A stretch of DNA of 64,000 bases, taken from assembly GCA_963825055.1 (NCBI GenBank), contig CAWGSK010000011.1:64001-128000 (forward strand). Reading direction: 5' to 3'. Of this stretch, positions 24,201-27,200 are shown one piece after another (within the stretch, counting starts at the first letter, position 1; each line of letters starts with the position of its first letter). The DNA comes from an uncultured Gemmatimonadales bacterium (GTDB lineage: Bacteria; Gemmatimonadota; Gemmatimonadetes; Gemmatimonadales; GWC2-71-9). A program made the position numbers.

Positions 24201-27200
24201 GCCCGCCGGCCTGAGAAGGGTGACGCCCTTCCAGCGGCAGGTGCGCGCCAGGGTCATCCAGGAGCTCCGTGACCGGTCACACGCGCCGTCGGTTGCGGAG
24301 CTCGAGGCGGGCCTCGATGCCACCGCAGCCGCGGTGCGCCAGGCCCTTCATGCGCTGGTGGATGCTCATCGGCTCGCGCTCCTCCCGGACTCCGATACCA
24401 TATGGATGGCCCACCCCTTCTCGGCTCTCCCGACCGTGCATGCCGTCCGCATCGGCAACCGCCGGTGGTATGCCAACTGCGCCTGGGACGGGCTGGCCAT
24501 CCTCGCGCTGCTCGGCGACGGAACGTTTGCAACCCGATGTCCCGCCAGCGACGAACCGATGGAGTACGAGGTCTATGGCCACCAGGTCCGCGGCACCGGA
24601 CTCGTGCATTTCCTGGTCCCGGCCCGTTCATTCTGGGATGATATCGGTTTCACCTGAGCCACCATCTCGGCGTTCCGGTCGGAACGCGCGCTGCACGAAT
24701 GGCTGGCATCGAAGGAGTACACGCCGGGTGCAACCGTGACCCCCCAGGCCCTCTACGACCTGTCGGTGGACTGGTACGCAAACCGGCTGGAGACCGACTG
24801 GCAGCCGGCGACGGCCGCCCAGGCACAGGCCATCCTCTCGCGCCATGGCCTGACCGGACCGTTCTGGACGCTGGCCTGACCATGATTCCCGGGGTCGCTA
24901 CGACCCCGGGCGCTGCAGGTATTCCCCGCTGAGTGAGTCGTAGACGCCGATCAGCGGCAACACGTTGCCCTGGTCATCGAACAGCCTGCCGCCCCACGAG
25001 ATCGGCTCCCAGATGGCCGCTCCCTTCCCCATGTCATCGGGAAGGCCGAATACGATGTCGTGCACCTCCCGTTTGAAGTCGGAATATTCCACCACGTTGA
25101 GCGGCTTGTGGTAGCGACCGGCCAGGTCGTGCAGGTTGGCGTTCAGGTCCTCCAGGGTGCCGTGCCAGCGGGGATAGTAGGACAGGCCGATGATGTCGAA
25201 CCGGACTCCCCGCGCCAGCATGTTGTCCAGCCAGAAGCGCGCCTCGGCGTTCTGCCCCCCAAGCGCGATGTGCATCATCACCGGGATGGCCGGATCTACC
25301 GCCTCCACGCCGTCCACTCCTGCCCGCAGCAGGCCCGCCAGCTGGTCCGGCTGGTCGATATGGCCGACCGGCCAGAGGAGGCCGTGATTGATCTCGTTCC
25401 CGACCTGGACCATGTCCGGAAGCGTGCCCTGCGCCTCCAGCGCCCGCAGTACGCGGGCCGTGTAGGTGCGCATGGAGTCCTGGAGCGCAGGATAGTCCGC
25501 CTCCGCCCACGCCAGCGGAATATTCTGCTGCTGCGGGTCGGCCCAGTAGTCACTGTAATGGAAATCGAGCAGAAGCTTGAGGCCGGCCGCCTTGACCCGT
25601 CGTGCCATGCTCAGGGTCGAGTCCAGCCCGCAGAAGCCGATGCCGGGGGAATACCCCTTCGGGTTCTCGGGATTCACGAAGATGCGCAGCCGGATGTAAT
25701 TGAAGCCGTGTCGCTTCAGGAGTTCGATCGCGTCCACCTTCTCCCCGTTTTCAAACACCCCCCCCGGTCCGCGGGAGAACCGGCCGGCCCGGTTTTCGAT
25801 CTCGGGGAGCCAGGAAATGTCCGCACCGATCATGCGATCGATGGGCTTGACGGTGGGCGGAAGCTGGTCGGACGCCGGGGTCATCAGCCGGACGTCTGCG
25901 GGGATGGTGTGGATTTCGTGCGCGCCCGGGTACAGGTGATCCGAGCGGGCTTCCACTTTTACCCGGTCCTGGGAGGTGCCGGCGCGCAGGCCCAGCCAGC
26001 GGGTCCCGTGGTCCAGGACCAGTGCGGCATACCGGGAACCCCCGGTGTCCGCCTCCATCGGCAGGGGCTCTCCGCCCCGCGACACGAGCGTGCCGTCCCC
26101 GGTCAGGTAGATCCGGACCGAGTCGCTCGCCGAGGTGATCTCCCGTCCCTGGCTGTCCGTCACGGCCACCCGGAGGCGGGTCGAGTCCGTCCCGTTGGCG
26201 CGGAGCGTGGTGCTGTAGCTCGTGAGCATGACAGCCAGAGGCGTGCCCGAGTCCACCCGGCTGGTCGCGGAGAAATCCGGCTGAGCGGCAGGGGCCCGGC
26301 CCCCGCATCCGGGCAGCGCGAGTGCCCAGAGCGCCGCCGCAGCGAACGGCAATGTCCTCATGATTCCCTCCCGGTCCGAGTATAGCGCGGTGGGGCGCGT
26401 CGGGACAGCGCACCCGGCTGCTGGCGGGCGGGCGCCCGGATGCTAGAATTGGGGGGTGCGCAAGTCCGTCCTCCTTTACGGCATCCTCGGCGGCGCCCTG
26501 ATCGCGCTGCTCAATGCCATCGAGTACCGCTATCTCGTCGTCGAGCATTCGGCGGCGATCTACGGCGGGCTGGTGGCACTGGTGTTCGCCACCCTCGGCA
26601 TCTGGCTCGGCCTTCGCCTCACGGGCCGGAGGGAACGGGTGGTCCTCCGGGAGATCCCGGTACCCGCCCCCGTGCCATTCACCAGAAACGAAGCGACCGT
26701 GTCCGCCACCGGGATCACGCCGCGCGAGCTGGAGATCCTCGAGTTCATCGCCGGGGGCCTGAGCAACCGGGAAATCGCCGAGCGGGCCTTCGTCAGCGAG
26801 AATACGGTCAAGACCCACTCCCGGCGGGTGTTCGAGAAACTCGGCGTCCGGCGGCGGACCCAGGCAGTCCAGCGGGGGAAGCAACTTGGGCTGATTCCGT
26901 AGGCTGTGGGTCACCCGAAGGAGGGATTGTCCCGGTGTCCGGCGGAAATCACCCCAACGGGTGATGCGCGGACCGGGTGAGCGGCCCATACTGCCCGGGC
27001 ATATTCGGCTCACCCCTCACCGACGGAGTGTCACATGCAGCGCATTGTCTGGACCTTCGGCCTGATCGCCGGGGCCATCCTGGCGGCCCTGATGGCCGTC
27101 ACCATGCCGTTCGCCGAGAAGATTGGCGATATGGCGTACGTCGTCGGCTACACCAGCATGGTTCTGGCCTTCCTGATGGTGTATTTCGGCATCCGGTCGT

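Follow-up and report, generated by a model that had tools for sequence, protein, structure and literature searches.

The window, a 64,000-nucleotide stretch of DNA from an uncultured Gemmatimonadales bacterium, holds at positions 24220–24879 what is very probably a single gene. It would encode a 219-residue selenoprotein of the MerB fold in which UGA specifies Sec146 at the site of MerB Cys159, with a mechanism presumably of the organometal lyase type. The features of the locus are listed here, with the evidence for each in brackets.

24220–24879, + strand: predicted MerB-like selenoprotein coding sequence, 219 codons and a terminal TGA, codon 146 specifying Sec (frame, Pfam, AlphaFold).
24220–24222, + strand: GTG start (homologue N termini begin at the matching residue; the upstream gene ends at 24214).
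24220–24393, + strand: N-terminal three-helix, winged-helix-like domain, residues 1 to ~58 (model helices, weak Pfam matches, Foldseek).
24418–24777, + strand: MerB (PF03243) catalytic domain, residues 67–186, extending across the TGA (Pfam).
24478–24489, + strand: codons for Cys87-Ala-Trp-Asp90, equivalent to MerB Cys96 and Asp99 (alignment to MerB and MerB2 in the PDB).
24655–24657, + strand: UGA, probably read as Sec146, equivalent to MerB Cys159 (TGA in 111/111 loci, Cys relatives, MerB/MerB2 alignment).
24670–24687, + strand: SECIS-type hairpin, stem 24670–24676/24681–24687, loop GGUC 24677–24680 (covariation, frozen synonymous sites).
24736–24879, + strand: 47-residue ORF sharing the extension's frame, matching g01147 (homology and structure model unbroken through the ORF).

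The initial annotation had proposed that the 145-residue gene g01146 continues past its TGA for 73 codons to give 219 residues. Re-reading the frame confirms this, since beyond the in-frame TGA at 24655–24657 there are 73 further open codons, reaching the TGA at 24877–24879. The extension was said to run over the called gene g01147, and a 47-residue ORF is indeed found in its frame at 24736–24879; it is a portion of the 219-codon coding sequence and no separate gene. The N terminus of one homologue (L002), MTPFDRQVRA, resembles that of the window protein. In one soil study, contigs of three runs span the TGA, and none shows another letter at that place. No RNA run listed contains the stretch. 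A consensus scan of 23700–25100 for promoters and terminators found none.

Databases, including RefSeq, hold 145–147-residue stubs of this family labelled 'organomercurial lyase', a systematic annotation error. Among the best 120 database matches 110 are exactly 145 residues long (111 at the earlier count), and the RefSeq entry from a cultured Nocardioides (sp. zg-1230), WP_172259106.1, is a truncated form of 147 residues. That Nocardioides genome has SelA and two copies of the gene. Such lengths are what would be expected if the TGA were a true stop, leaving a truncated MerB-like product of 145 residues and a separate small gene or remnant downstream, that is, a split gene or pseudogene; the 47-residue ORF, which can be called as a distinct gene, also fits this reading. 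The relatives argue strongly against it. TGA occupies the aligned codon in all 80 loci examined in other genomes, each a single HSP with exactly one stop, and in 31/31 further loci, so that neither the stop triplet nor its place varies across the 111 loci. The earlier count of 79 TGA and one TGT holds as to conservation of TGA, though not in its exact figures, presumably because the set of loci differed slightly.

The downstream codons evolve as coding sequence. In pairwise comparison of 81 aligned sequences, identity averages 64% over residues 60–145 and 60% over residues 147–219. Differences at third codon positions amount to 0.45 upstream and 0.44 downstream of the TGA, against 0.22–0.27 at positions 1 and 2. 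The 73 codons after the TGA are hence under the same purifying selection as those before it. A T-U motif is present in 80/81 of the aligned Sec-form sequences. The claim that the family is widespread is also borne out by the 80 loci, which span at least six phyla as judged from record titles; by the same titles, hosts of the Sec form are mostly soil Actinomycetota, Chloroflexota, Acidobacteriota and Gemmatimonadota. Among the species genomes scanned, 258 have relatives, and the Sec form occurs in 52/401 genomes of the sample from the window's own phylum.

Homology to MerB was expected to continue past the TGA, and the read-through protein matches positions 1–125 of the 126-position Pfam MerB model at 77.1 bits (gathering score 27). 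An AlphaFold model of all 219 residues has a pLDDT of 97.6 and is predicted to be MerB-like over its full length. In Foldseek searches of the PDB, all of the top 11 matches were MerB or MerB2, among them 5c17 (TM 0.72 and 0.76). The N-terminal domain is modelled as helices 3–19, 25–32 and 36–48; it has weak Pfam matches to GntR, LexA and HTH_20, and Foldseek matches over 52–69 columns to the DNA-binding domains of MntR and GntR. Foldseek alignments of the whole protein extend over about 195–201 columns, against MerB/MerB2 chains of 195–209 residues, and the N-terminal domain is therefore apparently common to true MerB enzymes. Residue 146 aligns with Cys159 of solved MerB and Cys165 of MerB2, and Cys87, Asp90 and Cys107 with MerB Cys96, Asp99 and Cys117, in agreement with the initial assignment of Sec146 to the Cys159 site and retention of the Cys96/Asp99 pair. 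Cys87, Asp90, His130 and Sec146 are all kept in 81/81 Sec forms. A protein ending at the TGA would lack both the complete fold and the third catalytic residue.

Sister forms with cysteine at this site are uninterrupted, which again speaks against a true stop. They align with the window protein over its full length at 27–43% identity, carry T-C in place of T-U and, like the window gene, stand alone: no mer genes lie within 1.5 kb at the 13 loci inspected. Database names for them are 'organomercurial lyase' or 'alkylmercury lyase family protein'. Cys occupies the Sec position in 53/60 full-length representatives. At the 14 Cys-form loci read at the DNA level the codon is TGC or TGT, and, in contrast to the Sec forms, the TTCCGGTCGGA element is absent; actinomycete forms also differ in having additional cysteines (TCGNQRIFCSxxC). 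These homologues bear too on whether the TGA might be translated as something other than Sec, for instance as Trp if genetic code 4 or 25 applied, or through near-cognate decoding. Two of the full-length representatives show W, as do two full-length entries among the best 120 database matches, which continue past the final TGA; the W in the latter reflects translation of TGA as Trp by the gene caller. No true Trp codon was found among the loci read, however, and the G+C content of the genome (68%) also argues against reassignment. Moreover, the window gene itself ends in TGA and its relatives in TAG (38), TGA (34) or TAA (8), so TGA works as a stop in this lineage.

A conserved hairpin with a GGUC loop, of seven pairs with four compensatory changes, had been reported downstream of the TGA. 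We reproduce the seven pairs, four of which are altered on both sides, and find the loop as GGTC in 80/81 sequences (18/18 previously). The hairpin is 18 nt long, starts 12 nt past the UGA and lies inside the frame, where it codes for x-F-R-S-E-x. Its UGA-to-loop spacing of 19 nt falls within the 16–37 nt between UGA and apical loop given for bacterial SECIS elements in PMC10778597. In the hairpin alignment pairing holds in 97.8% of cells, against 49–65% in slid controls, and none of 500 shuffles matched the observed score. The synonymous sites of the loop also appear frozen: Arg153 is CGG in 80/81 sequences (CGG makes up 31% of the other Arg codons of these genes) and Ser154 is TCG in 81/81 (36% elsewhere). 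Among the 31 further loci, all seven pairs form in 9, six in 13, five in 8 and four in 1; only the inner five pairs thus seem to be general, the outer ones being weaker in this set. An Rfam scan of 24600–24760 returned no SECIS family and a single chance snoRNA match (E 2.2). The predicted fold of the whole segment 24650–24730 is no better than that of shuffled sequences (z −0.57), and it is therefore the local hairpin alone that is meaningful.

The selenocysteine machinery reported for this genome was found again in each of its parts: a tRNA-Sec at C12:655725–655818, SelA (506 bits), SelB (291 bits, or 320 with in-frame neighbours) and a Sec-type SelD (383 bits) with one in-frame TGA, whose own hairpin has loop letters identical to those of the MerB-like gene. 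SelA is present in 52/52 Sec-form genomes of the phylum sample (background 321/401) and in 5/5 Sec-form genomes chosen from other lineages. In an actinomycete sample it occurs in 3/3 Sec-form genomes (background 80/301) and in 3/36 genomes with other matches; ten of these 36 were checked and all carry Cys forms, and the Cys sisters of this sample thus lie mostly in genomes in which no SelA was detected (33/36). Every Sec form examined therefore sits in a SelA-positive genome. With this and the covarying hairpin added to the conserved codon, selection, fold and Cys forms, a true stop at codon 146 is very improbable. Reading of the TGA as Trp or another residue, given that the genome has the full Sec system and the gene a SECIS-type hairpin, is more improbable still. 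Decoding of codon 146 as Sec is thus strongly supported at the level of sequence.

We also searched the genome, a bin 87% complete, for other selenoproteins. Filtering on GC3 periodicity returned 1724 in-frame TGA sites, of which 43, including both positive controls and four duplicates, also had a hairpin whose loop is of the GGU type; a stricter GC3 filter was discarded as it missed the MerB-like gene itself. For the 37 remaining candidates, no Pfam domain spanned the TGA after read-through, in a scan that is narrow and may miss selenoproteins. Two candidates were rejected individually: L150 consists of RimM followed by TrmD, with no domain across the TGA, and in L183 a hydrolase domain stops short of the TGA. 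A search of the genome for FdhA-type proteins gave no TGA-interrupted match. SelD and the MerB-like gene may, as proposed, be its only selenoproteins, on the evidence of narrow scans in both analyses.

The gene stands apart from known mercury genes. Its neighbours encode a Transgly_assoc protein, a GH53 enzyme and a LuxR-type regulator, and no merA, merR or transport genes are found near it. ORF clustering over 110 loci recovered the gene itself and an antisense shadow ORF (overlapping the gene on the opposite strand in 55/62 cases); no neighbour was conserved in more than 10 loci, and clusters of 10 or fewer were restricted to kin. MerA above cut-off was not found in the window's own, 87%-complete genome (best match 376 bits against 454), and MerA occurs in 3/52 Sec-form genomes versus 41/401 overall. 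With the gene alone, no mer genes nearby and no link to MerA at the level of genomes, the window gene does not belong to a mer resistance operon of the classical type, and the substrate on which its product acts in the cell may be another one.

The enzymatic function can be proposed from these comparisons. Codon 146 would be decoded as Sec by the genome's own SelA, SelB, SelD and tRNA-Sec, with the 18-nt GGUC-loop hairpin, 12 nt past the UGA, recruiting SelB. Sec146 would replace MerB Cys159 and act together with Cys87 and Asp90: as in MerB, an organometallic substrate would be bound through its soft metal or metalloid centre by thiolate and selenolate, a proton from Asp90 would pass to the carbon leaving group, and the carbon–metal bond would thereby be cleaved. 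Methylmercury or another organomercurial would be the default guess for the substrate. The very strong Hg–Se bond could impede product release.

A real selenoprotein need not be a lyase. The protein might bind, store or sense soft metals in a selenium-dependent manner, with Cys87 and Sec146 as ligands and the winged-helix-like N terminus binding DNA. The similarity of this domain to the DNA-binding domains of MntR, GntR and LexA would suit such a role, as would the lack of partner genes and of a link to MerA, and binding of other metals by MerB-type sites has been reported in a preprint (Haft and Gwadz 2022, bioRxiv 10.1101/2022.07.06.499078). Asp90, however, is the proton donor for cleavage and dispensable for binding, yet it is kept in 81/81 Sec forms, and the N-terminal domain is apparently shared with true MerB enzymes. 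We therefore consider a non-lyase role unlikely and retain the selenium-dependent lyase as the preferred reading.

The prokaryotic selenoproteome would gain a widespread family. It is a specific candidate to account for the genomes with 'MerB without MerA', so far unexplained, and for turnover of organometals in soils independently of mer, and with Nocardioides sp. zg-1230 a carrier in culture is at hand for testing. A bolder proposal, which we put forward as speculation, is that the T-U family is a mer-independent, selenium-dependent demethylase of methylmercury or other organometal(loid)s and, besides SelD, the main reason why such genomes keep the Sec machinery. The family's hosts include abundant aerobic soil lineages such as Gaiellales, Solirubrobacterales, Acidimicrobiia, Gemmatimonadota, Acidobacteriota and Chloroflexota. 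If the proposal is right, much of the potential for demethylation would systematically escape metagenomic merB surveys, since database copies of the gene are cut short and have no 'Cys159'.

Compared with known systems, the family appears to be neither canonical MerB nor SaoL. Canonical MerB (R831b; PDB 3F0P, 3F2F) and Bacillus MerB2 (5C17) share its fold, with Foldseek TM values of 0.55–0.76, and MerB Cys96, Asp99, Cys117 and Cys159 correspond to window Cys87, Asp90, Cys107 and Sec146. The window protein differs from both enzymes in having Se instead of S at position 159, in an identity of only 20–22% and in a longer C-terminal helical extension in its model. Unlike canonical MerB, it has neither a mer operon nor an association with MerA. 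Its scores against the NCBIfam models, which reproduce those first given, are far below cut-off for MerB (31.2 bits against 193 for NF009710; 27.2 against 200 for NF033555) as well as for SaoL (26.8 against 140, with the HMM matching residues 5–122 only).

A second point of comparison is the orphan MerB of Christakis et al. (2021, PMC8261052), likewise MerB-type genes in MerA-less genomes. That paper states that about half of merB-carrying genomes lack MerA, the lyase activity there being putative, and that its survey demanded Cys at position 159. The 145-residue Sec-form stubs, which lack position 159, would, we infer, have failed that screen.

SaoL was the only MerB-like selenoprotein found described in our literature searches. 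According to the Haft and Gwadz preprint (bioRxiv 10.1101/2022.07.06.499078), SaoL (NF040728) is a MerB-like organometallic lyase selenoprotein with a C-U motif, the marker of a nine-gene SAO locus that occurs in strict anaerobes. On that description it resembles the window family in its MerB fold, in Sec at the Cys159 position, in retention of the Cys96 and Asp99 equivalents and in database entries cut at the UGA. The window family has instead an (F)-T-U motif, no conserved neighbour in 110 loci by ORF clustering, and mostly soil hosts. HMM score, motif and gene context thus support its distinctness from SaoL. In SaoL and in the window family alike, Sec would have taken the place of the same catalytic Cys of the MerB fold, which suggests that selenium brings a genuine chemical benefit to carbon–metal bond chemistry.

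Comparison with relatives supports reading window positions 24220–24879 as one gene, in which the UGA at codon 146 would be decoded as selenocysteine (Sec) by way of a SECIS-type hairpin. The gene caller presents the locus as a 145-aa protein plus a separate 47-aa ORF. The features are as follows.

24220–24879, + strand: MerB-like coding frame, GTG 24220 to TGA 24877–24879, with an in-frame TGA at 24655–24657 and then 73 open codons
24538–24549, + strand: codons 107–110, here C-P-A-S (Cys107 kept, Ser110 instead of Cys)
24670–24687, + strand: hairpin GCGUUCC-GGUC-GGAACGC, beginning 12 nt past the UGA
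24736–24879, + strand: separate 47-aa ORF, past the internal TGA and in the same frame as the MerB-like gene

The continuation of the frame for 73 codons to a 219-aa product, described in the initial annotation, was reproduced. With the TGA translated as a residue, the Pfam MerB match (PF03243) spans it, covering residues 67–186 and model positions 1–125 of 126 at 77.1 bits (gathering score 27). In a PDB sequence search, residue 146 fell opposite the catalytic Cys159 of MerB from plasmid R831b and Cys165 of MerB2, A-N-C-A-W-D opposite MerB Y-A-W-C96-A-L-D99, and Cys107 opposite MerB Cys117. This agrees with the positions assigned before, Sec146 at MerB Cys159 and the Cys96/Asp99 pair kept as Cys87 and Asp90. 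Soil contigs from three runs of one study have no letter other than TGA at 24655–24657. They differ from the window at 24332 (C>A, Ala38 to Glu; Glu is also found in database protein P0002) and at 24621 (G>T, synonymous).

Relatives sought in one genome per species amounted to 258 loci, the best 80 of which were used. The aligned codon is TGA in 80/80, each locus aligning as one HSP interrupted by one stop only, and the extension past it runs for 70–85 codons to a true downstream stop (TAG 38, TGA 34, TAA 8). TGA is also found at codon 146 in 31/31 further loci from the window's phylum and an actinomycete class, so that the in-frame TGA with homology beyond it is indeed shared by relatives, as had been claimed. 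Across the alignment of 81 sequences, pairwise identity averages 64% over residues 60–145 and 60% over residues 147–219; nucleotide differences at third codon positions are 0.45 and 0.44 on the two sides of the TGA, and 0.22–0.27 at positions 1 and 2. Eighteen positions are invariant in 81/81, including Cys87, Asp90, His130, Sec146, Arg153 and Ser154. About 74/81 Sec forms (homologues with TGA at codon 146) have C-x-x-C at 107–110 (Cys107 75/81, Cys110 74/81); the closest relative of the window's protein has neither cysteine.

The 7-pair stem of the hairpin is paired in 97.8% of cells of this alignment, compared with 49–65% when the 3' arm is slid. Both-sided changes occur in four of the seven pairs, the observed covariation was matched by 0/500 shuffles, and the loop is GGTC in 80/81 sequences; the earlier description of seven pairs, four of them compensatory, and a GGUC loop is thereby upheld on 81 sequences. 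The loop is encoded by the codons for Arg153 (CGG in 80/81, against 31% of 1475 other Arg codons in the same genes) and Ser154 (TCG in 81/81, compared with 36% of the 694 Ser codons elsewhere), and residues 151 and 156 covary, forced by the outer pairs (Ala/Arg, Leu/Glu, Gly/Ala, Ala/Gly). Among the 31 further loci, 28 have the GGTC loop and the three with other loops retain a 6-pair stem; under the 7-pair model, seven pairs form in 9, six in 13, five in 8 and four in 1. Since only 9/31 pair fully, what holds generally is the loop together with the inner five pairs of the stem. An Rfam search returned no family matching the hairpin. The UGA-to-loop distance of 19 nt lies inside the 16–37 nt range for bacterial SECIS elements stated in the passage of a review used here (PMC10778597).

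The window's own genome has SelA (506 bits), SelB (291 bits; 320 including its in-frame neighbours) and SelD (383 bits, one in-frame TGA), and with the tRNA-Sec all of the machinery listed in the initial annotation was recovered. Two features of this genome lie outside the window.

C12:655725–655818: tRNA-Sec
C3:45499–45560: in-frame TGA of SelD, followed 25 nt later by the hairpin TGACGCA-GGTCC-TGCGTCA

The loops of the SelD hairpin and of the MerB-like gene hairpin have the letters GGUC in common. The E. coli fdhF SECIS loop is also GGUC.

Co-occurrence with SelA was counted descriptively only, because kin are not independent: among 401 genomes sampled from the window's phylum, SelA is present in 52/52 Sec-form genomes versus 321/401 overall. 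Matches were found in 59 of these 401 genomes, with 53 one-TGA matches in 52 genomes and TGC at the site in three stop-free full-length matches. More informative is a set of 301 genomes from the class of Nocardioides sp. zg-1230, since SelA is confined to 80 of them; here it occurs in 3/3 genomes with TGA at the site versus 3/36 with other matches. For ten of these 36 the nucleotide sequence was inspected, and the site codon is TGC or TGT in every one, including G589, whose listed TGA lies elsewhere in the match. SelA is likewise present in 5/5 further Sec-form genomes, chosen from five lineages. Genomes flagged unpublished (G157, G057, G447, G667, G419, G436, G440 and G182) were used only in the SelA and MerA background tallies, and none carries the MerB-like gene.

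Two Sec-form gene copies each occur in genome G098 (C84, C40) and in Nocardioides sp. zg-1230, where they are identical (C4:183808–184464 and C8:131245–131901). A narrow scan of the window's own genome, which cannot exclude more selenoproteins, supported none further besides SelD. Four of its 43 candidates are doubled on different contigs with identical hairpins and ORF lengths (C12/C21, C12/C25, C9/C31 and C9/C32; for example, C12:555721–556725 and C21:26381–27385). The bin therefore contains duplicated stretches; its stated contamination is 6%.

We searched 1.84 billion cluster representatives and examined the best 150, of which 60 reach across position 146. The residue there is Cys in 53, W in two, a gap in two, and Y, Q and G in one each; 80 of the 90 non-spanning representatives have their own C-terminus at query residue 144 or 145. 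Exactly 145 aa is the length of 110 of the 120 best matches in a 90%-identity collection, and the two full-length matches among these have W at the site and continue beyond the final TGA, hence were called with a TGA-as-Trp code. RefSeq WP_172259106.1 of Nocardioides sp. zg-1230, named 'organomercurial lyase', is a 147-aa stub, and 145-aa MAG proteins of Methylomirabilota and Vicinamibacterales bear the same name. Databases thus store the family cut at 145 aa, as previously proposed, a systematic truncation affecting a family widespread in soil bacteria. Among the Cys forms (uninterrupted homologues with Cys at the site), actinomycete loci L138–L147 have extra cysteines after the catalytic one, T-C-G-N-Q-R-I-F-C-S-x-x-C, and in two loci of the window's phylum (L124, L125) Cys replaces Asp90.

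AlphaFold2, run on an alignment of 52 sequences, gave a model with mean pLDDT 97.6 (≥90 at 218/219 residues) and pTM 0.93, in which residues 147–219 form a strand and three helices integral to the modelled fold. In a Foldseek search of the PDB, MerB and MerB2 structures take the first 11 places, led by 5c17 (TM 0.72 and 0.76, 22% identity); the next are winged-helix DNA-binding domains, aligned to the N-terminal 50–70 residues only. Comparison supports a MerB fold whose catalytic positions are occupied by Cys87, Asp90 and Sec146. In such a site the Sec146 selenolate and a thiolate would hold the metal and Asp90 would donate a proton, and a carbon–metal(loid) bond may be cleaved protonolytically.

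On an unrooted FastTree phylogeny of 161 proteins (112 Sec forms, 49 Cys forms) the Sec/Cys label requires six changes versus a mean of 42 with shuffled labels, and only one change is forced by well-supported branches. Grouped with the window's protein are those of an Acidobacteriota MAG (61% identity) and of one genome from the same order, in a clade that also contains Acidimicrobiia. The grouping suggests that the gene has moved between phyla.

ORF clustering of 110 loci revealed no neighbour common to more than 10. Flanking the window gene are genes for a Transgly_assoc membrane protein, a LuxR-type regulator and, in convergent orientation, a GH53 glycosidase. A perfect 10-bp inverted repeat (24888–24910, CCCGGGGTCG - CTA - CGACCCCGGG) separates the GH53 gene from the MerB-like one and overlaps the GH53 stop codon; a consensus terminator scan does not call it because it has no T run.

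MerA above cut-off is absent from the 87%-complete own genome (best match 376 bits versus 454). It is present in 41/401 phylum-sample genomes and 3/52 Sec-form genomes, there on other contigs, and no mer genes lie within 1.5 kb of 13 Cys-form loci. According to the portions of PMC8261052 drawn on here, a mer gene survey made Cys159 a requirement and reported MerA to be missing from about half of the genomes that carry merB.

The two NCBIfam models of canonical MerB score the MerB-like protein at 31 and 27 bits (cut-offs 193 and 200) and the SaoL model at 26.8 bits (cut-off 140), its match stopping at residue 122. These values reproduce the earlier figures (27–31 against 193–200, and 27 against 140), and with scores so far under the cut-offs both assignments were rejected. 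The parts of the Haft and Gwadz preprint consulted (10.1101/2022.07.06.499078) describe SaoL by its C-U motif, an SAO locus of nine genes and hosts that are strict anaerobes; the present family has T-U in 80/81 sequences. Within the article text of the literature covered, including selenoproteome reviews PMC9312934 and PMC13188914, SaoL is the only MerB-like selenoprotein found. The family described here is a second, independent-looking one besides SaoL.
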